A stretch of DNA of 64,000 nt from Bryobacterales bacterium. GTDB lineage: Bacteria; Acidobacteriota; Terriglobia; Bryobacterales; UBA6623. Made by a program: the position numbers and the translations under genes. The DNA is taken from contig OZ241997.1 of the NCBI GenBank assembly GCA_965204435.1, positions 4,899,212 through 4,963,211 of the forward strand. Reading direction: 5' to 3'. The stretch's first letter is position 1; each line of letters begins with the position of its first letter. Below, piece by piece: positions 29,881 through 44,583 of the stretch. Under the pieces are notes generated by a model. That model saw nothing but the letters and a program-made list of their open reading frames with translations, did no database searches and was not told the DNA's origin.

Positions 29881-29982
29881 TCTGCGAGTTATCGCACAAC
29901 CACCGCTCGTTTGTCCAGCCCCTCTCCTAACTCCTTATGAAATCCGGCCCTCGCTATCGGACATTGAAAAGCCCTGGAGTCT

Positions 29983-29997
29983 TGGGGACTTGCTTGC
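29983..29997 (+). promoter_or_regulatory. candidate sigma-54 -24/-12 element upstream of the TonB-dependent receptor
   Basis: TGGGGA-CTTGC-TTGC has the spacing of TGGCAC-N5-TTGC, with GG and GC conserved. It lies about 60 nt upstream of ATG 30057. Only 7 of 10 consensus positions match. Confidence 0.2.
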
Positions 29998-30056
29998 GAC
30001 GCCCTGATCGATGCGCTAAGATATTGGAACTTGGTATGCCAACAGTGAGGTGTTCA

Positions 30057-33000
30057 ATGTCATTCATTAAACATGCTTTAGTGCTAGTCGTGGCTATGTG
30101 CGGAGTCTTGGTGCCCGCGTCCGCGCAGGATACTGCCACCCTGAGCGGCCAGGTCAACGACGAATCCGGTCTGGGCGTTCCGAACGCGCGGGTCACGGCC
30201 AGCAACCTCTCTACCGGCGGCGAGGAACGTGGTTCGACGGACGGTGCGGGTGCGTACGAGTTGACGCTGGATCCGGGCACGTACTCGATCGTGGTCGAGA
30301 GTCCCGGTTTCGAAGCGGCGATTGCCGATGGTGTCGAACTGGCAGCTGGCCAGTCCGTCGAGCGAAATTTCAGCCTCGAGGTGGCCGCTGTCACCGAGAC
30401 TGTCGTGGTCGTCGGCAGCCGCGCTGCACCCCGCTCGGTGATCGAGTCCACAGTGCCCGTCGACGTCATCAGCACCTCCGACCTTGGTCGGCAGGGGAGC
30501 AGAGATCTGGTCAGCCAGCTGCGGACCGTGATCCCGTCGTTCAACATAAACACCCAGCCGATCAGCGATGCGGCGACGGTGGTCCGGCCGGCGAACTTGC
30601 GCAATCTCGCGCCCGACCACACGCTCGTCTTGGTCAACGGAAAGCGCCGCCACCGGGCGGCGGTTATCACGTGGCTGGGCAATGGCATCGCGGACGGCTC
30701 GCAAGGGCCGGATATCTCTGTCATCCCGTCGATCGCGATCCGGCAGGTCGAGGTTCTGCGGGATGGCGCGGCGGCCCAGTACGGATCCGACGCCATCGCG
30801 GGCGTGATGAACTTTCAGCTGAAGGATGACCCCTCGGGCGGCAGTTTCGAGATCCAGACCGGGGCCTTCAGGGATGCCAATCCTGGGGACCCGTCTACAT
30901 GCGGGGCCGGCATCATCGGTGATATCCAGCACTCGTGCAACGGAATCGGCGGACATGGCAGGACGCTTTCCATTGCTGGCAATATCGGAGTGCCGCTGGG
31001 AGATAACGGCTTCGGCAACTTCAGCATGGAGGTCGCCAACGCCGCGCCGACCAGCCGCTCGATCCAGCGCAACGATGCGGCGGGCATCATTGGCGCGGGC
31101 AATGGCAACATCCGCAATCCTGCGCAGATTTGGGGATCGCCGAGGATCAACCACGACGTGAAGTTGTTCGGGAATTTCGGGTACCAGCTTTCTGATAGTT
31201 TGCAGCTGTACGGCCACACCAACTACTTGACACGCAAGGTGACGGGCGGGTTCTACTTCCGGAACCCACATACCCGCGGCGGTGTCTTCCGCGGTCCGAA
31301 GCTCGAGGATGGAACGCCCTCGCTGCTCGTGGGTGACCGGGTATGGGCCGAGCAGTCTCCCGAAGGCGGGCCGCCCCCAGGCCGCGAAAAAGGCGTCGGC
31401 TGCCCTTTCATTCCGATCGTGAACAACGTTCCGGATGCGGACGCACTCGCGGCGGTCGAGGCCGACCCGAACTGCTTCACCCTCTACAGCCGGTTTCCCG
31501 GAGGCTTTACGCCGCAGTTCGGCGGGGACCTGATCGACTATTCAATCGTCGCCGGTCTGCGAGGGTTCGCGCAGAACGGGTTTGCTTGGGACGCGAGCGT
31601 CAGCAGGGGCACCAGCGAGATTGACCAGTTCATCTTCGACACTGTCAATGCGTCAATCGGATCCGATACGCCGACATCATTCCGGCCAGGCATCTACCGA
31701 CAGGACGAAACCAACCTGAACTTCGACGTCTCCATGCCGGTCAGCGATCTCGTCCACGTGGCCGCTGGCGGTGAGTGGAGGCGGGAGGAGTTCACAATCG
31801 GGGCGGGCGATGACGCGTCGTGGCAGATCGGTCCATATGCGGCGCAGGGCTTCAGTTCCGGCTCGAACGGCTTCAACGGCTATCGTGCCGACACGACGGC
31901 AGGGAAGTGGGAACGCCAGAACGTTGCCATGTACGGCGACGTTGAGTTCTCCCAGCCGGGCCGGTGGACGTTCGGCACCGCCGTCAGATTCGAGAACTTC
32001 GACGATTTCGGCAGCACGGTCAACGGCAAGGTCTCGGGCCGGGTCAAGGTCACTGATGTGCTGGCGGTGCGCGGCGCGGCCAGCACCGGCTTCCGAGCAC
32101 CGACGCCCGGGCAGCAGAACGCGTTCAACGTGACGACGGCATTCATCGGCGGGCAGCTGACCAACAACGGCGTTGTTCCCGCGACCTCGGCAGTCGCCAT
32201 GGCGCGCGGCGGCGGCCAGCTCCAACCGGAAAAATCGTTCAACATGAGCGGCGGTGCCGTGATCGAGAAGGGCGCGTTCACCTTTACGGCAGACTTCTTC
32301 CGGGTCAGGATCGAAGATCGCGTTGCTTTGTCACAGGAAGTTGCCCTGACGGAACCCGAGATCGAGACGTTGCTGGCGGAAGGGATTCCGGAAGCGCGGA
32401 ACTTCCCCGTGTTCCGGTTCTTCCTCAACGATTTCACGACATTGACGCAAGGCGTTGACTTGATTTCAACGTATGCCGCAGGCAACACCACGATCAGCGC
32501 GGTCTTCAACTACACGGACACGCAGCTTCGAGACATTCAATCGTCGGTGATCGACGAGTTCCGTATCACTACGCTGGAACAGGGGCTGCCGAACACTCGC
32601 TGGACCATCAGCGCCACTCACGATGCCCGCCGCTGGGACCTGCTGGCGCGGGTGAACTACTTCGGCAAGTTCTGGGACAGCGAGGACGGGCGGAACGCGG
32701 TTGGCTTGCCCGGCGGGCCGACGGCGGCGGCGCTATACCCATCCTACGCGGGCAGGGCGCTGGTGGATATCGAGTTCGGGGTGCCGATCGGACCCAACGT
32801 GCATCTGGCGGTGGGCGGAGAGAACATCTTCAACACCTATCCCGAAGTAAACCAGTTCGGCGCGATGACAGTCGGCAACATGTACGGACAGTTCTCGCCG
32901 TTCGGCTTCAACGGCGCGAACTTCTACGTGCGGCTCAACTACGGTTGGGGCTCGAGCCGCCCGGGGCGGGGCACTCGTGCGGAATCGACGCCTGAGCTCG

Positions 33001-33335
33001 ATCCCCTCCGGAAGCGCCAAGAGGTTGCCGAGAAGATCGAGGACCTCGACGCCCTGCACGACGAGTTGATCGACCTGTTGAGGGCCAAGCAGGAAGCGCA
33101 GACCGATCTGTGGCTGAAGCGCTGGGCCGGGGACAAGCTGGAAGAGGCGCTGAGGGCGAAGGAGCGCGACATGGAGATGCTGCGGGCCGCCTTGGCGAGG
33201 CGAGGCTTTGGCGACGAAGTCGAGCCGATCGGAAGAACTGCCGAATTGAAGCAGCATCACGTCAAGGGCCAGATCGCAGCCGCCAACCGGCAAGAGCAGC
33301 CCGTCATGGCCGCTGCCTCGGTGCTCGCGCCGTAA
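30057..33335 (+). CDS. TonB-dependent receptor (CarboxypepD_reg + plug + barrel) with a 128-aa C-terminal extension
   Basis: ATG at 30057 follows GTGAGG. Signal peptide ALVLVVAMCGVLVPASAQ. CarboxypepD_reg region LSGQVNDESGLGVPNARVTA...GTYSIVVESPGF. Plug region VVGSRAAPRSVIESTVPVDVI...LVLVNGKRR. The barrel ends at ANFYVRLNYGW (32948). The frame then continues to 33335. Confidence 0.85.
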   Translation: MSFIKHALVLVVAMCGVLVPASAQDTATLSGQVNDESGLGVPNARVTASNLSTGGEERGSTDGAGAYELTLDPGTYSIVVESPGFEAAIADGVELAAGQSVERNFSLEVAAVTETVVVVGSRAAPRSVIESTVPVDVISTSDLGRQGSRDLVSQLRTVIPSFNINTQPISDAATVVRPANLRNLAPDHTLVLVNGKRRHRAAVITWLGNGIADGSQGPDISVIPSIAIRQVEVLRDGAAAQYGSDAIAGVMNFQLKDDPSGGSFEIQTGAFRDANPGDPSTCGAGIIGDIQHSCNGIGGHGRTLSIAGNIGVPLGDNGFGNFSMEVANAAPTSRSIQRNDAAGIIGAGNGNIRNPAQIWGSPRINHDVKLFGNFGYQLSDSLQLYGHTNYLTRKVTGGFYFRNPHTRGGVFRGPKLEDGTPSLLVGDRVWAEQSPEGGPPPGREKGVGCPFIPIVNNVPDADALAAVEADPNCFTLYSRFPGGFTPQFGGDLIDYSIVAGLRGFAQNGFAWDASVSRGTSEIDQFIFDTVNASIGSDTPTSFRPGIYRQDETNLNFDVSMPVSDLVHVAAGGEWRREEFTIGAGDDASWQIGPYAAQGFSSGSNGFNGYRADTTAGKWERQNVAMYGDVEFSQPGRWTFGTAVRFENFDDFGSTVNGKVSGRVKVTDVLAVRGAASTGFRAPTPGQQNAFNVTTAFIGGQLTNNGVVPATSAVAMARGGGQLQPEKSFNMSGGAVIEKGAFTFTADFFRVRIEDRVALSQEVALTEPEIETLLAEGIPEARNFPVFRFFLNDFTTLTQGVDLISTYAAGNTTISAVFNYTDTQLRDIQSSVIDEFRITTLEQGLPNTRWTISATHDARRWDLLARVNYFGKFWDSEDGRNAVGLPGGPTAAALYPSYAGRALVDIEFGVPIGPNVHLAVGGENIFNTYPEVNQFGAMTVGNMYGQFSPFGFNGANFYVRLNYGWGSSRPGRGTRAESTPELDPLRKRQEVAEKIEDLDALHDELIDLLRAKQEAQTDLWLKRWAGDKLEEALRAKERDMEMLRAALARRGFGDEVEPIGRTAELKQHHVKGQIAAANRQEQPVMAAASVLAP

Positions 33336-33342
33336 ACTGATT

Positions 33343-33363
33343 CGGTTCCCGCAACGGGAACCG
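33343..33363 (+). terminator. stem-loop downstream of the receptor gene
   Basis: cggttcccg-caa-cgggaaccg forms a 9-bp perfect stem, 8 nt after the stop. There is no clear U-tract. Confidence 0.4.
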
Positions 33364-34167
33364 GAAACCTGCGGCGCTGGGCGGCCGAGCTGCCCCGGCT
33401 TGATCGTCGGGGCAGCCGGCTAGGCGGTGGCACTCAGCGGTTGACTGGGCAATTGGCCCTGCTCTATCGGCGTCGCGTTGAGCCCGACGCTCTTGCTTCA
33501 TTAAGGGGTCGCGGAGGTCGCGGATAGTCCGTCCGGCGTCGCGCGTGCGGGCGCTCGCCCGCAAATTCGTTGCAACCGGGGCTCGCAAGCGGCTTGCATT
33601 CCCCGGGGCATCTCTCGTATCGCGACTGCTGCCCGGTTGAGTGCGATTGACGTGCAGAGAGCCGATCCGTGCATGGAAGGGTGCGCCGAGCGCCAGAGTG
33701 TCGACGGGATGCTGCCGGGCCCGATTCCCGAGCAGTCTGCCAATGCAATCGAAGTGCTGCTCTTGGCATGGGTGATCTCCACGGGAGACCACACCCGCAC
33801 TTGCCTCGAGACCATCAAGGTCAGGGCACGGGAGGCGGTCGATCTCTTCCTTCCTGGCGATTCTCCGCTGCCGGGCTCGATTGACCGGCGTGCCGAACTC
33901 TTGGACGGCGCGTGCTTCCCGGAATTCTGCCGTTCCTACTTGGGAGGCGACGACCAGACCTGATGCGGACTCTCTGTCGACTCTCGCATGCAACCGCCCG
34001 CTAGGCGGGGCGCTGGCCCTGGATGCCGCGTGTCGTGCGGTCCAAGGCTGCTTGGCAGATTGAACACCATCGACGGGACTGTGTTCGGAGGTGAGATGCC
34101 GGCCCTCAGCGGCGCAATCCGGAGGGGCAGGGCCTGTCTGCGCTCCCTCGCGTCCGTTGCTACGCCG

Positions 34168-34227: not shown

Positions 34228-34315
34228 CCAGCATGGGAACCCTACGATTATGGGAACCTGCCTCCCGTAACCTGTTGGGTTACAAAGGCTTGGGGGTTGA
34301 CTAGGTTCCCATAAT
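34228..34315. repeat. RIT left terminal inverted repeat (IR-L)
   Basis: ccagcatgggaaccctacgattatgggaacctgcctcccgtaacctgttgggttacaaaggcttgggggttgactaggttcccataat is the reverse complement of 37847-37934 apart from one mismatch (34305 versus 37857). Confidence 0.95.
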
Positions 34316-34316
34316 G

Positions 34317-35354
34317 CTAGCGCTCTGCCGAGTCTCCAACCGCTGCGACGTCTCCGAGCATGGCGAGGAGTTCGTCGTGCACGCCATCAAAGGATCCCTT
34401 GCGGAGGTTCGGCGGCTGCCGAGCTGACAGGATGTCGAGCTTGTTGGCCGGGTCCACCCGCAGGTACATTTCGGTCGACTGCAGACTGGCATGGCCAAGC
34501 CAGAGGGCGACCTGCCGTATGTCGCCGGTTGCCTCGAGCGTATTGAGAGCACAGGCGTGCCTCAATGCGTGTGGCGTGACGGCCTTGCTCGCGATTGAAG
34601 GCATCGTGTGTCCCGCGGTTTCCGCGTGCAGGGTGAGTCTCTTGGCAAAGCCGCGTCGCGTCATGCCGGTACCGAATGCATTCAGAAAGAGATGCTGGTC
34701 GGTACCATTTGGACGGACATGGAGCCATTTGCGTAGCGCGCTGCGGGTTTGCTTCCACAGCGGCAGGACGCGCCCGCGGCGTCCCTTGCCCATCACCCGG
34801 ATGCTGTCGAGTCCCGGCGCCTTGAGGTCTTCCAGGGCAAGGCCAACCAACTCCGAGACCCGCAGGCCGGCATTGTAGGTCAGGCACAGCATCGCACGAT
34901 CCCGCAAGCCGGTGACGGTGTCGGCAGCGGGGGCATCGAGCAAGGCCTGGACCTCGGCATGGTTGAGATACTCGACCGGCGGCAGATCACCTTTCTTCTG
35001 CGGCAAGGCATGCACCTGAGCCGCTAGGTCGAGGCACTCAGGATGTCGGAATTCCAGATAGCGGAAGAAGGACTTGATCGCAGCCAGACGGGCATTGCGG
35101 GTCCGCACGCCATTGTTCCGGTCCGCCTCGAGATGATCGAGGAAGGCGAGCAACGTCGTCGTGTCGAGATGCCCGACCTCCAACTGGCACGGTCGGACCT
35201 TGTGCCGCCGTGCTGCGAAGACTGCCAGGAGCTTGAAGCTGGCGACGTAGCTCTCAATGGTATGTGGGCTAGAGCCGCGATCGCGCGGCAGGTACTCCCT
35301 GAGGAAGCGCGCCAGAGGCCGTGCGAGATCACTCATCGTCCGTCCTCCCGGCAC
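34317..35354 (-). CDS. tyrosine recombinase, third gene of the trio (RitC position)
   Basis: 345 aa with a SAM-like N-domain (HTIESYVASFKLL). The catalytic region has LRVSELVGL, HALRHACALNTL and LGHASLQSTEMYLRV. The stop lies 1 nt from IR-L. Confidence 0.9.
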   Translation of the reverse strand: MPGGRTMSDLARPLARFLREYLPRDRGSSPHTIESYVASFKLLAVFAARRHKVRPCQLEVGHLDTTTLLAFLDHLEADRNNGVRTRNARLAAIKSFFRYLEFRHPECLDLAAQVHALPQKKGDLPPVEYLNHAEVQALLDAPAADTVTGLRDRAMLCLTYNAGLRVSELVGLALEDLKAPGLDSIRVMGKGRRGRVLPLWKQTRSALRKWLHVRPNGTDQHLFLNAFGTGMTRRGFAKRLTLHAETAGHTMPSIASKAVTPHALRHACALNTLEATGDIRQVALWLGHASLQSTEMYLRVDPANKLDILSARQPPNLRKGSFDGVHDELLAMLGDVAAVGDSAER

Positions 35355-36273
35355 GCAGTCGTTCGGTGGCCGCAGACACTTGGTTCAGCAAGACAGGCGT
35401 CGCCTCGAGGTACCAGTAGGTATCGGTGGGTTTCGCATGGCCGAGATAGGTGGACAGCGCGAGCATGTGACGGCTGATCTGCCTCCGATCGCGGGACACG
35501 ACGCCCTCCAGAGCGCGCGCCGCGAAGCCATGGCGAAGATCATGGAGGCGCGGACCGGGCTCGTCCCGTCCCCCGCGCAGTCCGAGCTGACGCGCTAGCC
35601 GGATAAAGGTATGGGTCAGATGATCGGGGCTGACTGGACGGCCAGTGGCGAGAACGAAGAAATGGTCGCCCGGGCTGCCGCATCGCAAGCGGATCTCCAG
35701 GTACCGGTCCAGTGCTGCCCGTACGCTCTCATGCAGGGGCACGAGCCGCTGCTTGCCGAATTTGGCAGTGCGAATCCGCAGTCCGTCTTGCGTGAAATCC
35801 TCGAGTTTCAGGCCGATGGCCTCCGCACGCCGCAGACCGGTCGCTGCGAGCAGCCCGATGATGTGGTGGAAGGTCACGGGTGTGATGGAGCCGGCGGGCG
35901 GCAGTTCCAGAGCCGCATCCATGACCTGCCGGACTTCCGCCAACGACAGCAGCCGGGGCGGTGGCCGGTGACGCGTCGCCCGGCCAAGGGCATCCCTGTG
36001 GGGAATCTCGTGCCGTTCGTCCTCGGCATACAGATAGTCGGCCAACCCGCGGACGAGCAGAAGCCGCCGGCGTTTCTGCTGGGGCGACGCTGCCTGCGAC
36101 GCCCAGGCGAGAACGGTTTCGACACGAATGAATCGGTCGCCTCGAGCCTCGGCATGAGCGGCAAAGCCGCCAAGAATCTGCTCTGGTTCCTGAAAGGACA
36201 GACCGGTGGCGCGCTTGAAGGCGACATATGAGATGACGTGGTCGGTCAGGGTCATCCGAGTTCTCCCGGCCAA
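35329..36273 (-). CDS. tyrosine recombinase, second gene of the trio (RitB position)
   Basis: 314 aa with GLRRAEAIGL, LHDLRHGFAARAL and LGHAKPTDTYWYLEA. It overlaps both neighbours (26 nt and 22 nt). Confidence 0.9.
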   Translation of the reverse strand: MAGRTRMTLTDHVISYVAFKRATGLSFQEPEQILGGFAAHAEARGDRFIRVETVLAWASQAASPQQKRRRLLLVRGLADYLYAEDERHEIPHRDALGRATRHRPPPRLLSLAEVRQVMDAALELPPAGSITPVTFHHIIGLLAATGLRRAEAIGLKLEDFTQDGLRIRTAKFGKQRLVPLHESVRAALDRYLEIRLRCGSPGDHFFVLATGRPVSPDHLTHTFIRLARQLGLRGGRDEPGPRLHDLRHGFAARALEGVVSRDRRQISRHMLALSTYLGHAKPTDTYWYLEATPVLLNQVSAATERLRAGRTDDE

Positions 36274-37799
36274 GGCTGAGCCAGATCGAGAAGCATCGGA
36301 ACATCCACGCGAGCGTAGATTGCCGTCGTCTTGATGGATTGGTGGCGCAGTAGAGCACCGACGGCCTCCAGAGAAATTCCGGCGCGCAGCAGGTGGGTGG
36401 CTCTGGAGTGGCGGAACAGATAGGCGGCGGGGAGGCCGTCATTGACGACCCCGATTCGTTTCATCGCGCGTCGCACGATGGAGCCGACTGCCGAACTGGA
36501 CAAGCGAGCGTGAGGAGCGAGGGACCGCAGGAACACAGTTGCGCATTCGGTGCGTGGCCGCGCTCGCAAGATGTAGTCCTTGAGGGCATTGCCGGCTTCC
36601 TGCGACAGTGGCAGAGCCGCACTGCGGCGCGATTTCCCGTTGACCCTGATGAGCGCTTGCTCCCAGTCGAGATCGCCTAGCTGCAGGGCTGTAATGTCTG
36701 CGGGGCGCAGTGCGAGCCGTGCCAGTAGCAGCAGGACGGCCCGATCCCGCAATCCGATAGAGGTTGAAGTGTCGCAACTTGCGATCAGCGCCTCAATGTC
36801 CCCCTCCTCGACATACCGGGGTAACCGTGCCTCCGTCTGCTGGGAGATCGAAGGGACCGCACCAACAAGGCCAGGGCGGCACAGCCCCTGCACCGCCAGG
36901 AACCGCAGATACGACCGCAGCGCTGTGGCCTCGTTCGCGATCTGGCCTCGCGAGTAGGATTCCGCACGGTTCAGAAAGGCAGTGCGGATCGACGCTGCAT
37001 CATAGGTCCCCGGACTATCGCCGAGCAGCAGCAACAGCCCTCGCAGGCAGCGGTCGTAGTTCCTCAACGTGATATCGCGGACGCCGCGATGACGGCGTAG
37101 CCAGCCGAGGAAGGCGTCGACATGGACGCCACGGCTCGCGCCTGGCACCGGATCGCGCCAGTCCGCAACCACACCTCGCTCGACTAGGAAGCTGGCAAAC
37201 CTTGCGAGCCTGGCCTCGGCGTCGCGGTTTCCGGAAAACGCATTGGGACGAGCGAAGAAGTGCGGATGCGCGCAAGCGCAGTCATGGTCGAGAAACCGCT
37301 GCAGGACGTCGCGGTCGAACTCTGCTAGTTCCAAGTTCGAGCGATACAGCCAAACAATGAAGTGTCGGCAGAGTGTCCGGTACGAACGAATTGTCGATGC
37401 TCGGTAACCTTGGGGCTTCAAGATGCCCGTGAACGCTTCCACGAGTCCACCGCCTGTGACAATCGCGGGCGGGACGGCCGCCAGACCGGTTTCGATCAGG
37501 TAGCCGAGAACACGATGCGCCTGCGATCTTGACCGCTCGTTCAGCTGGCTACGGAATTCGGCCGGACAGTCGCAGTCGTGGCTGAGAAAGCCGTCAACGC
37601 TGCGGATGTCCAGCGCCGCAACGTCCGATTCATTGACCGTTAGCCAAGCGACGATGTGCCGGGCTGTTCTTTTCAGATTGCTGAAGAGGCTGGCCGAATA
37701 GCCCCGGTCGTTCAGATGCGCCTCGTAGGCCGGAACAATCCGGTCGACATGCGCCTGGATGACCTCGGTTGACGCCCGAGGCGGGAAGGGTAGAGTCAT
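36252..37799 (-). CDS. tyrosine recombinase, first gene of the trio (RitA position)
   Basis: 515 aa with a long N-terminal region. The catalytic region has LALRPADITAL, FRHSRATHLLRAG and LRHQSIKTTAIYARV. The RBS AGGAG lies 7 nt upstream. Confidence 0.9.
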   Translation of the reverse strand: MTLPFPPRASTEVIQAHVDRIVPAYEAHLNDRGYSASLFSNLKRTARHIVAWLTVNESDVAALDIRSVDGFLSHDCDCPAEFRSQLNERSRSQAHRVLGYLIETGLAAVPPAIVTGGGLVEAFTGILKPQGYRASTIRSYRTLCRHFIVWLYRSNLELAEFDRDVLQRFLDHDCACAHPHFFARPNAFSGNRDAEARLARFASFLVERGVVADWRDPVPGASRGVHVDAFLGWLRRHRGVRDITLRNYDRCLRGLLLLLGDSPGTYDAASIRTAFLNRAESYSRGQIANEATALRSYLRFLAVQGLCRPGLVGAVPSISQQTEARLPRYVEEGDIEALIASCDTSTSIGLRDRAVLLLLARLALRPADITALQLGDLDWEQALIRVNGKSRRSAALPLSQEAGNALKDYILRARPRTECATVFLRSLAPHARLSSSAVGSIVRRAMKRIGVVNDGLPAAYLFRHSRATHLLRAGISLEAVGALLRHQSIKTTAIYARVDVPMLLDLAQPWPGELG

Positions 37800-37846
37800 G
37801 ATTCATCTCCTGTGCTGGTAAGAAACCAACAGAAGATGACAAGACA

Positions 37847-37934
37847 ATTATGGGAATCTAGTCAACCCCCAAGCCTTTGTAACCCAACAGGTTACGGGAG
37901 GCAGGTTCCCATAATCGTAGGGTTCCCATGCTGG
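37847..37934. repeat. RIT right terminal inverted repeat (IR-R)
   Basis: Reverse complement of 34228-34315 (87/88 identical). The ORF track independently shows the same peptide, AWEPYDYGNLPPVTCWVTKAWGLTRFP, in ORFs on opposite strands at the two sites. Confidence 0.95.
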
Positions 37935-37937
37935 GTT

Positions 37938-37957
37938 ATATCGGAACGTTCCGATAT
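37938..37957. repeat. perfect 20-bp palindrome abutting IR-R
   Basis: atatcggaac|gttccgatat. It lies in the 26 bp (37935-37960) between IR-R and the vapC junction. There is no counterpart at the left end. Confidence 0.9.
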
Positions 37958-37960
37958 CAT

Positions 37961-39377: not shown

Positions 39378-42300
39378 CTAGAACGTGATCCGCAACCCGA
39401 GCTGCATGATGCGCCGGCTGTTGGGCAGGGTGTTCGTCACCAAGCCGAACGTGCCGCTGCCGAGCGACGTGTTGGGGATATTGAAGGCGGGCGTGTTGGC
39501 TGCGTCGTACGCCTCCCAGCTGAAGCGGGCGCGCCAATTCTCGCCCCAGCGGAAGTTCTTGGCAAGCATGACATCAAAGTTGATCCGCATGGGTCCGCGA
39601 ATGCCGGGCAGCGTCCGCCCCGCGTCGCCGAGCGTGAACGGCGCCGGATTCTCGAATGCGGCCTCGTTGAGCCAGTTGTGCCCGATCACTCCGTCCGCCG
39701 CTTGCTTTTGAGTCGAAGACTTGAAGGGAGCACCCGTGAGGTTCGGCCTCAGGGCGACGCCAGCGGCTAGATCTCCGCGCAAGTTGCCTCCGCCGTCTAT
39801 GTTCACGCCCATGTAGCCGCCGCTGCGAACCGTCCCTACGGTCGACAGCTGCCAGCCGCCGGCCACTGCGTCAAGCACCTTGTTCCAACTCGACCCCCAG
39901 CGGCGGTTCCTGCCGAATGGCAGTTCAAAGATTGGGGCAAACACTATGCGGTGCGGCAGTCGGTTCACCGAACTGGAACGCTCGTCGCTGAGGTCGTAGA
40001 TGTTCTGGGGATTGTCGTTGTCGCCGAACGTGTCGCCGTCGCCGATGAAACGAATGTTGTCAATCCACTGAATGTGTGTGTAGGCAACGGTCCAGCCCAG
40101 TCCGTTCTGGTAGCGTTTCTCCGACTTGAAGGTGAGCGCGTAGTAGTTCGAGATGCCCCAGTTCGGTGACATCAGCTGGATCTGGTCTTGATTCCCCTGC
40201 CAAGCCACCCATGGCCGGAAGTCCTCGATGTTCGCTCCCGGCGCATTGGCCGCTGCGAGATGTTCGGGGCGGATATGGTTGATGTTGAGGTTGTTGATCG
40301 CTTGGTGGCGGGCCAGAGCGCCCATGAACCCGAAGTCCCAGAGCACGCCCTTCCAACGCGTCTGCAACGTCAAGTTGAAGTTCTGCGAATAGGGCAGCAC
40401 TCGATCTTGGTTCCAGAACTGAATGGTGGACGTCTCGAAGCGCGTGCCTACCGCGCCGAAGCCTCCATGCAACTCGGATTCGGGTATGTCGTCCAAGGCG
40501 CCTGCCGGGACGCCATCGCGCAGGTAGCCGCTCAAGCCTCCGCGTACGCGGAAGATGTTGTCGAATCCGGCCCGACCCGGCTGGATGGAGTTGCGGTCGT
40601 AGGGATTGCCGAAGAAGATCCCGAAGCCGCCGCGCAGCACCATCGAGCTATCGTCCTTGAGTCGGTAGGCGAAGCCGAAGCGCGGCGCGAAATTGTTCTT
40701 GTCCCACTGCCAGAGGTACTTGCCGGTGCCGTCGCGATTCGGGAAGAGCACCCTCCCGATCGCGCCTTCGGGGATTCCGTTCTGGCCAGCCAGCGGATGC
40801 GGGCAGTACTCGCAGAAGCCGTTCATGCGTCCCCCCACTTCGTAAATCGGGGTCTCTGTCTCGTAGCGCAGGCCGATGTTCAGCGTCAGGCGCTGGGTAG
40901 CTCGCCAATCGTCTTGGAAGAATCCCGACCAATACTTGATCCGCTTGCCGATTCCGGGCGCGACGCGCGTGTCGAGATTCCACACACGCCCGAGCATAAA
41001 GTCGGCAAAGGCAACGCCCGTGTTGTTGTTGCGCCCTCCTCCCGACAGTTTCCACTCGCCGGTTAGGTGGCCCGTCGACCGCCAGTGTCCGGAGGGCTGG
41101 GGACGGCTGACCTCATTGCCTTGGTAGGACGTGTACTTCCCGCCGAACTTGAAGGTGTGGTTACCCCTGATCTTGGTGAAGTTGGCTTCGTAGTCGAAGT
41201 TGGTGAAGACCGCGAACCGGTGGGCGTTGCCCAAGGCGCCGATCCACGACATCGGCACGCCGCGGCCACCCCCGAAGTTAAAGCGCGGGAAGACCTCGCC
41301 GCCTTTTTCGAGGCCGGGAATGCCAAAATGATCGGCGTAGTTTGTATCGCAGCAATCTCCCGATTTCCTGTCTACCGAGACTCGATTGAACCCGATGATC
41401 GATGTGACGAAGAATGTCGGGTTGAAGGTGTAGGTATTGTTGAGGCCCCAGTTCTGGCGGCGGTTCAGGATTGCAATTCCCCCCGGATCCGCGATCCCGT
41501 ATCCCTGGGTGTAGTCGGTCACCGTGTCATCCGGCTCGGTCAGGATCATGCGCATGAAGGTGCGCCACTTGTCCGAGTAGTTGTGATCCAACCGAAACGT
41601 GTGGTAGTCGCGATTGCGCGCCCGGTCGGCGGCCTCGCGCCAATTACCTGCGAGGTTGTTTAGGTTGTTCGGCACACGGTTGGGGTCCGGTATGTAGCTG
41701 GCTGCCTTGACCGCCACCGGGTCCAAGCGATCCACGGGGATCGTGTTGTCTGGGAATGGGGATGCTCCCCGGGGTCTGGTGAACGATCCGCCTTGGCGCG
41801 TCATGGGGTCATAGATTGGCACGAACACCGCCCGCCCGCCCGCGTTGCGAGTGGCGCGCGAGAAGTTGCCGGTTCGGAATTCTGGCAGGCCGACATTGCG
41901 CGTGCGAATCAAGCCGAGCTTCTCTCGAAAGACGTCGATGTTATAGAAGAAGAACGTCTTGTTCTCGGCAATTGGGCCGCCGATCGAGATGCCGCCGTTG
42001 TTGCGCCGAAGCTTGGGCTTGGCGTCTTGGTTCCACCCGGCTGCGTCGAAGGCGTCGTTGCGCACGAAGTGGTAGATGCTGCCGTTCCAGCTGTTCGTGC
42101 CGCTGCGAGTGAGTGCCTGCACCACGCCCGCCGAGCTGCGGCCGTATTCGGCACCCATCGAGTTGACCTCCACCTTGAACTCTTGCATCGAGTCGACAGG
42201 TGGGGCCATCTCGATATTCTGTACGCCTAGCCCGCCCCGCGTGTTGTTCACGCCGTCAATGTAGGATCCCGTCGAGCGGGAGCGGCCCCCTCCAATGGAA

Positions 42301-42827
42301 ACGTACCCATTCGACTCGGAGCGGGATGCGCCGGGCACCAAGTTCACGAGGTTAAAAATGTCGCGGTTCGGTAGCGGCAGCTCTTGAATCTGTTCCGTGG
42401 CGACGGTACCACCAACCGAACCGGAGGTGGTCTGGACCTGAAGCTGTTCCGCGTTGACCTCGACTGTCTCGGTCACCGCACCGATCTCCAGCGCGAACGA
42501 CTGCGTGATTTCTGACGCCACGTTGAGGCGCAGGCCGCGTACCTCGGCTGACTTGAAGCCATCGGCCGAGGCAGAGATGTTGTACTCGCCCGGTGGCATG
42601 TTGGGCACGGCGTAGACGCCGTTGATGCCGGTCTCGGAGGGAGTCTCCACGCCGGTCTCGGCGTTGACGATTGAGATCTGCGCACCGGGAATCACTGCCC
42701 CGGTGGCGTCGCTTACGGTCCCGTTGATCGTGCCAGCCGCACCTTGGCCCCATGCGAGGGCCGGCAGCAGCACCGCCAATGTCCACCCTGCGAACAGGCG
42801 GACCTTCAATCCTTGATTAGCTCTCAT
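39378..42827 (-). CDS. CarboxypepD_reg-domain TonB-dependent-receptor-like outer membrane protein
   Basis: 1149 aa. Signal peptide LAVLLPALAWGQGA. INGTVSDATGAVIPGAQISIVNAETG...PGEYNISASADGF. Plug-like region VEVNAEQLQVQTTSGSVGGTV...LPLPNRD. It ends with the canonical MQLGLRITF. Confidence 0.85.
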   Translation of the reverse strand: MRANQGLKVRLFAGWTLAVLLPALAWGQGAAGTINGTVSDATGAVIPGAQISIVNAETGVETPSETGINGVYAVPNMPPGEYNISASADGFKSAEVRGLRLNVASEITQSFALEIGAVTETVEVNAEQLQVQTTSGSVGGTVATEQIQELPLPNRDIFNLVNLVPGASRSESNGYVSIGGGRSRSTGSYIDGVNNTRGGLGVQNIEMAPPVDSMQEFKVEVNSMGAEYGRSSAGVVQALTRSGTNSWNGSIYHFVRNDAFDAAGWNQDAKPKLRRNNGGISIGGPIAENKTFFFYNIDVFREKLGLIRTRNVGLPEFRTGNFSRATRNAGGRAVFVPIYDPMTRQGGSFTRPRGASPFPDNTIPVDRLDPVAVKAASYIPDPNRVPNNLNNLAGNWREAADRARNRDYHTFRLDHNYSDKWRTFMRMILTEPDDTVTDYTQGYGIADPGGIAILNRRQNWGLNNTYTFNPTFFVTSIIGFNRVSVDRKSGDCCDTNYADHFGIPGLEKGGEVFPRFNFGGGRGVPMSWIGALGNAHRFAVFTNFDYEANFTKIRGNHTFKFGGKYTSYQGNEVSRPQPSGHWRSTGHLTGEWKLSGGGRNNNTGVAFADFMLGRVWNLDTRVAPGIGKRIKYWSGFFQDDWRATQRLTLNIGLRYETETPIYEVGGRMNGFCEYCPHPLAGQNGIPEGAIGRVLFPNRDGTGKYLWQWDKNNFAPRFGFAYRLKDDSSMVLRGGFGIFFGNPYDRNSIQPGRAGFDNIFRVRGGLSGYLRDGVPAGALDDIPESELHGGFGAVGTRFETSTIQFWNQDRVLPYSQNFNLTLQTRWKGVLWDFGFMGALARHQAINNLNINHIRPEHLAAANAPGANIEDFRPWVAWQGNQDQIQLMSPNWGISNYYALTFKSEKRYQNGLGWTVAYTHIQWIDNIRFIGDGDTFGDNDNPQNIYDLSDERSSSVNRLPHRIVFAPIFELPFGRNRRWGSSWNKVLDAVAGGWQLSTVGTVRSGGYMGVNIDGGGNLRGDLAAGVALRPNLTGAPFKSSTQKQAADGVIGHNWLNEAAFENPAPFTLGDAGRTLPGIRGPMRINFDVMLAKNFRWGENWRARFSWEAYDAANTPAFNIPNTSLGSGTFGLVTNTLPNSRRIMQLGLRITF

Positions 42828-43113: not shown

Positions 43114-44583
43114 TCATCGCGAGACGCCCTCACGCCTTCGCTTCGTGTCGATGCCCAGCCGTTGGAGCTTTTGGTTGAGCGTGGAAAGGGCGACGCCCAG
43201 CGCCTTGGCCGTCTCGGTCTGGCTGTATCCGTGTCGCTCAAGCTCGCCCAGCAGGACCTGACGTTCAAAGCGCTCCACAATATCGGGCAAGCTCTCGCCC
43301 GGGCGCCGGGCGTGGATGTCCTGCTCCGACGACTGCGGTGCCGCAGCGCCTGCCGCTTCCCGGATGGGGGCGGGCAGCACGTCCGTGCCGAGTTCTTCCT
43401 GAGTCGCCAGCACTACCGCCCGCTCGACCACGTTGCGCAGCTCCCTGACATTGCCCGGCCAGCTGTGCGACATGAGGAGCTGCTGCGCTTCGGGAGCGAA
43501 CCGCAGCGTCGATCTTCGGTCAGGTCCGAGAAAATGATTGCTCTCCCGCCGGCAAAACTGCGTCAGGAATTCCTCGACCAGCACCGGGATGTCCTCGGTC
43601 CGCTTGCGCAGGGGGGGCAATTCGATCCCGATTACGTTCAGCCGGTAGTAGAGGTCCTCGCGAAAGCGGCCGGCAGCGACGGCAGCCTGCAGGTCCTCGT
43701 TAGACGCCGCGATGATCCGCACGTCCACCCGCCTGCGCTCGTTGGACCCGACGGGCACGATCTCTCGCTCTTGGATCACGTGCAGCAGCTTGGCCTGGGT
43801 CTCCAGCGACAGGGCCCCGACTTCGTCAAGGAAGATCGTGCCGCCAGCGGCGGTCTCGAAGCAGCCCTGCCGATCGCGCTCGGCACCGGGAAACGCACCC
43901 TTGACGTGGCCGAACAACGAGGATTCAAGCATCTCGCCCGGAATCGTTGCAGAGTTCACGGTGAGGAAGTTCGCCTCGGCGCGGGCGGAGTTCCTGTGAA
44001 TCGCGCGCGCCACCAACTCCTTGCCGGTGCCGCTCTCGCCCGTGACGAGCACCGTCGAAGTCGTGCGGGCCACCTGGTGGATCATCACCAACACGCTGGT
44101 AATCGCCTCCGACTTGCCGATCAGGTCGTTCACCGAGTCGGCCTGCCCGAGTTCGTCCCGCAAGCGGGCGTTCTCGGTCTCCAGCCGCTTTCGCGCCAGC
44201 TGCTGCTCGATCTCCAGCAGCAGCTGGCGGTTGTTCCAGGGCTTGGTCAGAAAGTTGGCAGCGCCTCGGCGCGTGGCCTCCACGGCTGTCTCGATCGAGC
44301 CGTACGCGGTCAGCATGAGCACCGGGGTGTCAGGTCTGACCGCAACGATGTCGGTGAGCACTTCGAGGCCAGTCCGGTCCGGCAGCATCAGGTCCAGCAG
44401 CACAAGATCACAGGGCTGGCGGGCGAAGACCTCCGTGCATTCCCTTGCCGTACCTGCGGCTAGGGTGGCGTAGCCGGCCGCTTCGACGACGGCCCGCAGG
44501 GATTCTACGATTGCCGGTTCATCGTCAACGATGAGAATGCGAGCCGGGTGCCTGGCGCTAGGGGCGGTCGGTTCTTCAGGCAT
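43114..44583 (-). CDS. sigma-54-dependent response regulator (NtrC/Fis family)
   Basis: 489 aa. REC domain (ILIVDDEPAIV...DLVLLDLMLPD), AAA+ domain (VLVTGESGTGKELVARAIH, GAFPGA, ESSLFGH) and a C-terminal Fis HTH (TAKALGVALSTLNQKL). Confidence 0.9.
   Translation of the reverse strand: MPEEPTAPSARHPARILIVDDEPAIVESLRAVVEAAGYATLAAGTARECTEVFARQPCDLVLLDLMLPDRTGLEVLTDIVAVRPDTPVLMLTAYGSIETAVEATRRGAANFLTKPWNNRQLLLEIEQQLARKRLETENARLRDELGQADSVNDLIGKSEAITSVLVMIHQVARTTSTVLVTGESGTGKELVARAIHRNSARAEANFLTVNSATIPGEMLESSLFGHVKGAFPGAERDRQGCFETAAGGTIFLDEVGALSLETQAKLLHVIQEREIVPVGSNERRRVDVRIIAASNEDLQAAVAAGRFREDLYYRLNVIGIELPPLRKRTEDIPVLVEEFLTQFCRRESNHFLGPDRRSTLRFAPEAQQLLMSHSWPGNVRELRNVVERAVVLATQEELGTDVLPAPIREAAGAAAPQSSEQDIHARRPGESLPDIVERFERQVLLGELERHGYSQTETAKALGVALSTLNQKLQRLGIDTKRRREGVSR

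Follow-up and report, generated by a model that had tools for sequence, protein, structure and literature searches.

What is the sequence that follows the last beta-strand of a TonB-dependent receptor encoded by a Bryobacterales bacterium? TonB-dependent transporters are among the best-studied outer-membrane machines, and a terminal aromatic residue at the extreme C-terminus is a feature of the class; in the receptor discussed here the beta-signal-type terminal aromatic of the strand FYVRLNYGW is internal, and 128 residues follow it. The gene lies in a 64,000-nucleotide stretch of DNA (the window) that corresponds to positions 4,899,212 to 4,963,211 of contig OZ241997.1 (assembly GCA_965204435.1). 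The extra sequence is almost certainly a genuine, vertically inherited domain fusion, made up of a linker of about 16 residues, a three-helix domain of about 100 residues and a variable tail; a role for the domain can be proposed much less firmly.

Sequence beyond the last barrel strand

The listed open reading frame (ORF) of the receptor, as translated, spans positions 29937-33335 on the + strand. Its barrel ends with ...GANFYVRLNYGW at 32948, the Trp of ...NYGW occupying 32946-32948, and is followed by 128 open codons (32949-33332) and a TAA stop (33333-33335), exactly as in a preliminary description of the window made from its letters. That description also pointed to coding-like, G/C-biased third positions, which are borne out: the GC fractions at codon positions 1, 2 and 3 are 0.73, 0.44 and 0.835 in the extension versus 0.60, 0.49 and 0.78 in the barrel, in the same frame. 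It was right, too, that the neighbouring receptor (39378-42827) terminates at its equivalent strand, ...LGLRITF, with no extension. In a window of 64% GC the openness of the frame is by itself weak evidence for coding, since base composition gives a probability of 0.034 for a run of 128 codons without a stop, and 8.6% of the intervals between successive stops, counted over all six frames of the window, are at least that long. The extension nonetheless goes beyond chance, because it is conserved in frame at 40 of 40 loci and in more than 110 protein clusters and shows the marks of purifying selection.

The clusters, recovered by a full-length search, share 69-98% identity and are 1064-1174 aa long, and all have homologous sequence after Y-x-W. 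The loci come from a scan of one genome per species, which yielded 40 loci from approximately 36 species-level genomes, nearly all of them metagenome-assembled genomes of Bryobacterales or other Terriglobia; identity to the window reaches 99% in the best match. At every locus the extension is in frame after the motif [FI]YV[RQ][LV]xYxWG; 35 loci have an open stretch of at least 877 codons ahead of it, and the other five are interrupted by an earlier stop or a contig end. Orthologues that stop after YGW, which the preliminary description had named as grounds for doubt, were thus not what was found. Among the receptors the extension varies from 118 to 182 aa in length. A word-index search with the extension alone had returned only four fragments, and the rarity that this implied was rejected in light of the full-length search and the genome scan.

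Across the order the extension diverges to about 50% sequence identity. Pairwise ratios of nonsynonymous to synonymous substitution rates (dN/dS) are 0.15-0.35 for the extension versus 0.09-0.135 for the barrel, with comparable dS, and by this measure the extension is under purifying selection. In a neighbour-joining tree built from the barrel only, the tail types track the barrel clades. In the same tree P0122 (...NYSWGKLF), the sole close relative to stop early, falls within the extension-bearing sequences, and its shorter form is therefore a secondary loss. Several Terriglobia genomes contain two receptor-extension copies (L046/L048, L049/L050 and L051/L052). In one further metagenome-assembled genome, two copies of equal length, tail and profile score (L021 and L022) both lie near contig ends, so the gene belongs to a repeat in that genome.

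The structure of the region was predicted with AlphaFold2. In a full-length model, whose overall confidence is low (mean predicted local distance difference test score [pLDDT] 57, approximately 22 in the plug region, the alignment being too shallow) and which was used for strand count and helix placement only, the barrel has 22 long strands of at least nine residues each (residues 261-962, numbered from Met41); the last of these is at FYVRLNYGW, and it is followed by three helices and zero further strands. A misjudged barrel end, with extra strands hidden in the extension, is therefore not what the model predicts. The extension alone, modelled from an alignment that includes distant homologues, reached a mean pLDDT of 82.6 and a predicted template modelling score of 0.68, with pLDDT mostly above 90 in three long helices. 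In extension numbering the linker (1-16) is disordered, the helices span residues 17-50, 54-84 and 92-114, and the tail (115-128) is again disordered. The sequence is charged, amphipathic and helical, and in the monomer model the three helices are predicted to fold back on one another. The coiled-coil appendage of the preliminary description thus survives as a conserved helical appendage, although the monomer is not predicted to be an extended coiled coil, and its periplasmic location follows from receptor topology (see below).

Conservation within the extension is uneven. The first five linker residues, directly after the Trp, form a conserved G-x-[SG]-R-P, and the rest of the linker is variable (alignment A2); each helix has a conserved motif, L-H-D-E-L-I in helix 1, A-K-E-R-D in helix 2 and A-E-x-K-Q in helix 3. 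Beyond helix 3 there are at least seven unrelated tail types. In one clade (L029, L045, P0023, P0026, P0030, P0033, P0034, P0038, P0040 and P0059) a longer tail, giving a total of approximately 165-175 aa, terminates in ...FRSPWG[LV]TF, a motif similar to the C-terminal beta-signal of outer-membrane proteins that appears anew where the extension ends. Pfam, NCBIfam and PHROGs contain no family that matches the extension, and nothing significant was found in PDB sequence profiles or, with tblastn, in PLSDB plasmids. Foldseek searches of PDB and BFVD gave only generic three-helix bundles (BAG, syntaxin Habc) that are not significant (E > 0.1), and sub-threshold matches to a hemerythrin motif and to syntaxin/DUF7201 were dismissed as helical-repeat noise.

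From its domain content, the product is an Oar-type TonB-dependent receptor (CarboxypepD_reg, Plug and TonB_dep_Rec), with the Plug and barrel matches both above their gathering scores. A TonB-box-like ETVVVVGS, recognized by eye in the translation and conserved in alignment A1, lies just upstream of the Plug domain. The terminal aromatic at the extreme C-terminus is the sole class feature that is missing; the other defining features are present, the signal peptide and TonB box putatively so, and the protein is still classed as a variant TonB-dependent receptor of the Oar-like subclass. The first in-frame ATG (29937) is probably not the true start. Met41, at 30057, is the likely one, because homologues are called at 1092 aa and align from this residue, and a putative signal peptide comes next. 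A perfect hairpin past the stop codon (Table 1) is the likely 3' end of the transcript; many relatives likewise have strong, terminator-like hairpins past the stop of the extended gene, not homologous to this one, and a shared kind of 3'-end structure is thereby suggested.

Standalone relatives on conjugative elements

A profile of the extension was compared with 1.84 billion representative proteins and gave 57 hits. Some of these are receptor-tail fragments, and most are standalone proteins of 140-360 aa that have the domain at or near the C-terminus, sometimes twice. When the receptor-extension profile was compared with a profile of the standalone proteins using hhalign, they matched with 99.8% probability (E = 1.5e-28) over 109 columns. 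A full-length alignment with the standalone proteins gives a family signature, L-[HY]-D-E-L-I ... Q-T-D-x-W-x-K-R-W-A-G-D-x-V, within about 110 residues and three helices, and D53, in the motif that begins helix 2, is the sole invariant column across receptor-borne and standalone forms. On these profile and alignment comparisons, the three-helix domain is a previously undescribed family common to receptors and to envelope proteins of conjugative elements.

The N-terminus is a signal peptide/lipobox or a transmembrane anchor in at least 40 standalone proteins, and in many a Pro-rich spacer precedes the domain. This supports a location in the envelope, and the overall layout resembles that of TonB. 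Conjugation or plasmid DNA surrounds the standalone gene in all five contexts that were retrieved (Table 1). In the fifth, on contig L055, the standalone protein has an N-terminal transmembrane anchor and its neighbours include a TraG/TrwB coupling protein, a VirB11-like ATPase and a Gp49/HigB-like gene. Since conjugative elements encode the domain in standalone form, the extension probably arose by ancient fusion of a formerly separate gene and not by a recent accident in this genome. The suggestion that stop-codon loss had fused a small downstream gene to the receptor thus probably holds as regards a fusion, an ancient one, and fails as regards a recent loss.

Several rearranged copies were also seen. 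A chimeric ORF of 271 aa (P0126) joins part of a RepA_C-type replication protein to the receptor last strand and extension; the RepA part is 66% identical to the RepA of a plasmid-like contig (L012, 1394-2392), and the chimera is therefore evidence of recombination between plasmid and receptor genes. The receptor gene on L012 has 27% identity to the second receptor of the window, a value that is uninformative for the host of L012. Cut-down copies of the receptor tail and extension adjoin insertion sequence (IS) transposases on three contigs (L003, 8001-8597; L004, 7043-8435; L005, 7522-7956), and L003 also has an intact extension-bearing receptor at its far end.

Table 1. Features of the receptor gene in the window (window positions) and contexts of standalone genes for the three-helix domain.
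Feature	Position	Strand	Basis or content
Complete receptor gene including C-terminal extension	30057..33335	+	ORF list, translation, 1092-aa homologues
Putative signal peptide MSFIKHALVLVVAMCGVLVPASAQ	30057..30128	+	By eye in translation; N-terminus conserved in alignment A1
N-terminal CarboxypepD_reg domain (Oar-type N-terminal extension)	30138..30380	+	Pfam PF13620, E = 8e-18, ORF residues 68-148
Plug domain	30441..30806	+	Pfam PF07715, E = 4.9e-16, residues 169-290
22-stranded beta-barrel	30837..32948	+	Pfam PF00593, E = 7e-24 (7.1e-24); AlphaFold2 strands
Last barrel strand FYVRLNYGW	32922..32948	+	Strand E954-962 in model; motif [FI]YV[RQ][LV]xYxWG in 40/40 loci
Linker GSSRPGRGTRAESTPE	32949..32996	+	pLDDT ~55, without secondary structure; alignment A2
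Helix 1 of extension, contains L-H-D-E-L-I	32997..33098	+	AlphaFold2 H17-50, pLDDT >90; conservation in A2/A3
Helix 2 of extension, begins T-D-x-W-x-K-R-W-A-G-D	33108..33200	+	AlphaFold2 H54-84
Helix 3 of extension	33222..33290	+	AlphaFold2 H92-114
Disordered clade-specific tail ...QEQPVMAAASVLAP and stop codon	33291..33335	+	pLDDT <50
11-bp GC-rich hairpin, perfect	33341..33365	+	Six nt past stop; RNA fold -22.1 kcal/mol, z = -3.2; no U-tract
Standalone context 1			Circular 50-kb contig with VirB11-type ATPase
Standalone context 2			Coupling protein, VirB11-like ATPase, NikA
Standalone context 3			RepA, ArdC, NikA/MobC
Standalone context 4			ParA, ArdC, integrase
Standalone context 5	L055 2581-3147, neighbours up to 14780	-	Domain protein ends a TrbI/VirB10-VirB8-coupling protein-VirB11 string

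Possible roles of the domain

The 22-strand barrel of a TonB-dependent receptor has its two termini on the periplasmic side, and the extension domain should therefore be periplasmic and hang under the periplasmic mouth of the barrel. With a linker of 16 residues it would be confined near its own barrel opening. We propose that the domain is a periplasmic protein-binding module whose target is at the periplasmic face of a TonB-dependent receptor, a choice of target that follows domain-fusion ('Rosetta stone') logic together with the shortness of the linker. Candidate targets would be the plug, the TonB box, the N-terminal domain or the incoming C-terminal domain of TonB. Proteins of mobile elements would present the domain in trans, held by a membrane anchor. 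In the receptor clade it would act in cis, on a linker so short that little beyond the barrel of the same receptor is within range, and it could modulate or lock the coupling between plug and TonB, and with it transport or receptor availability. A mechanistic parallel is offered by Llp of phage T5, a lipoprotein that jams FhuA by binding the plug of this transporter from the periplasm (PMC9586334).

This proposal, which joins the identity of the fusion to a mechanism, is the best explanation overall, and taken whole it falls slightly short of an even chance. Its most specific element, that the domain acts as a gate or lock on the periplasmic face of its own receptor, is offered tentatively, with the balance tipped against it. 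Several points count against the proposal. The full-length model is of low quality and yields neither docking information nor an interface; Llp is unrelated in both sequence and fold, and the analogy is mechanistic only; and the proposal explains neither the variability of the tails nor the conservation of G-x-S-R-P after the Trp. Among the 40 loci no conserved functional neighbour hints at a function for the receptor gene; only IS transposases and scattered housekeeping genes are found, and the commonest neighbour family, a transposase, is present in 8 of the 40 at most. The standalone contexts would, in addition, suit a target in conjugation, for example a component of type IV secretion, just as well.

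In a wider version of the proposal, the domain would represent a new class of periplasmic effector with TonB-dependent receptors as its binding targets. Anchored to a membrane through a Pro-rich tether like that of TonB, it would serve conjugative elements in trans by jamming or hijacking receptors of the host and so excluding phages, bacteriocins or rival elements, and the Bryobacterales fusion would be the 'Rosetta stone' that reveals the target. We regard this version as speculative and, as it stands, unlikely. If it were true, the receptor would be the first of its class with a built-in C-terminal gate on plug-TonB coupling.

The alternative that survives best is that the domain docks elsewhere, most plausibly on a periplasmic component of conjugative type IV secretion, with the chromosomal receptor copy serving as a decoy or entry-exclusion factor that acts on arriving conjugative elements, or as a mating contact point. 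All five standalone contexts are conjugation or plasmid regions, one of them ending a TrbI-VirB8-coupling protein-VirB11 string, and receptor-extension genes often adjoin insertion sequences and integrases. TrbK/Eex-type exclusion proteins offer a comparison, since the standalone proteins are envelope-anchored like known exclusion lipoproteins; however, family and profile searches show no homology to known exclusion or type IV secretion proteins. The 16-residue linker, moreover, holds the domain at the outer membrane, the gene has an ordinary chromosomal context in at least one lineage, and no reason is offered for fusion to one specific receptor clade. We consider a conjugation partner to have a modest chance, well below that of the proposal as a whole.

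Lower still is the chance that the extension is a structural or oligomerisation module, in which helices pair between receptors or bind peptidoglycan or envelope scaffolds, and so cluster or anchor the receptor as the OmpA C-terminal domain does. The charged, amphipathic, helical sequence would suit such a part, and barrel-plus-periplasmic-domain proteins such as OmpA provide a precedent. We think it improbable, because AlphaFold2 gives a confidently folded monomeric three-helix arrangement, neither OmpA_C nor any other peptidoglycan-binding signature is present, and the standalone forms on mobile elements would be unexplained.

A further reading makes the extension a relic without function, left when recombination fused part of a mobile-element gene to the receptor, and since then tolerated. 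It could draw on the occurrence of the domain on mobile elements, on the rearranged copies (the RepA-receptor tail chimera and the IS-truncated tails) and on the high variability of tails beyond helix 3. It is very hard to reconcile with purifying selection on the extension, with its retention across the entire order despite divergence to approximately 50%, with its co-divergence with the barrel and with a downstream flank that is conserved and non-mobile, and we give it little weight. A variant in which an element integrated at the 3' end of the gene supplies the tail was rejected: synteny with a relative holds over approximately 900 bp past the stop, and the insertion of three recombinase genes begins about 895 bp downstream. 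Finally, although 128-codon open frames are not rare in GC-rich DNA, an assembly artefact or a recent stop-codon loss in this genome has next to no chance of being correct, as independent assemblies from different studies, both short-read and long-read, show the same in-frame extension at 40 of 40 loci.

Gene surroundings and comparison with known systems

In one lineage the receptor-extension gene lies between sulfatase and ASPIC/UnbV genes, an ordinary chromosomal context. In the window a DDE transposase gene (610 aa, PF01609; 28067-29899, - strand) ends immediately upstream of the receptor gene, and homology to a related locus starts only at 29990; the native upstream region of the receptor has therefore been replaced. 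On the other side, three tandem tyrosine-recombinase genes on the - strand (34317-35354, 35329-36273 and 36252-37799) look like a 'recombinase trio' mobile element. Relative to a close Bryobacterales locus they constitute a 3.7-kb insertion (34231-37959) with flanks that are 88-96% identical, and the related locus has a PIN/MazE toxin-antitoxin pair at this place. The second receptor of the window (39378-42827, - strand) is Oar-like, matches PF25183 (OMP_b-brl_4) and has the canonical ...LRITF end; it is followed by a sigma-54-dependent response regulator (43114-44583, - strand), and in close relatives this pair adjoins the extended receptor.

Up to the last strand the receptor conforms to the Oar subclass of transporters, such as Oar of Myxococcus xanthus, with the same PF13620-PF07715-PF00593 order, a signal peptide-like N-terminus and a TonB-box-like motif; it differs in the folded domain of 118-182 aa that follows the barrel in the Bryobacterales receptors. 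A survey of 34,893 proteins distinguished five N-terminal architectures, in which the accessory domains (CarboxypepD_reg, STN and AMIN) are all N-terminal (PMC6434023), and the C-terminal deviations described for Xanthomonas receptors amount to only 1-4 residues (PMC1790865). No published description of a folded C-terminal domain on this receptor class was found in the literature searched, whose coverage leaves out most subscription journals. The extension, conserved across an order of abundant soil Acidobacteria, defines a new domain family and connects nutrient receptors encoded on the chromosome with the envelope proteins that conjugative elements carry. Should the fusion reflect a physical interaction, the way in which mobile elements manipulate TonB-dependent receptors from the periplasmic side becomes open to direct tests; otherwise the receptor is a modest architectural variant in uncultured bacteria.

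The STN domain of transducer receptors (FecA, FpvA and FoxA) is likewise an extra periplasmic domain on a flexible linker that makes protein-protein contacts. It differs in being N-terminal, in its alpha/beta fold (PF07660) and in its encoding beside sigma/anti-sigma genes; the receptor has no PF07660 match, and no extracytoplasmic function (ECF) sigma or anti-sigma neighbours are present in the window or at the 40 loci.

Superinfection-exclusion lipoproteins that jam TonB-dependent transporters also include the Cor-type proteins. The standalone homologues of the extension are, like Llp of phage T5, small, periplasm-facing, membrane-anchored and encoded by mobile elements, and Llp acts on the periplasmic side of a transporter (PMC9586334). 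They have no relation to Llp in sequence or fold, however, the elements here are conjugative rather than phage, the domain in the window is covalently attached to its receptor, and receptor binding is suggested here by analogy only.

Architectural parallels are also provided by OmpA/OprF and the fimbrial ushers, in which a barrel with an internal beta-signal strand is likewise followed by a periplasmic domain on a linker. The extension differs from these in lacking an OmpA_C (PF00691) or usher C-terminal signature, in being all-helical and in its attachment to another class of barrel. Internal beta-signals are tolerated in OmpA and the ushers, and the arrangement in OmpA/OprF and the ushers shows that the barrel-assembly machinery accepts it; a domain after the last strand of the Bryobacterales receptors shows that this tolerance extends to the TonB-dependent receptor class.

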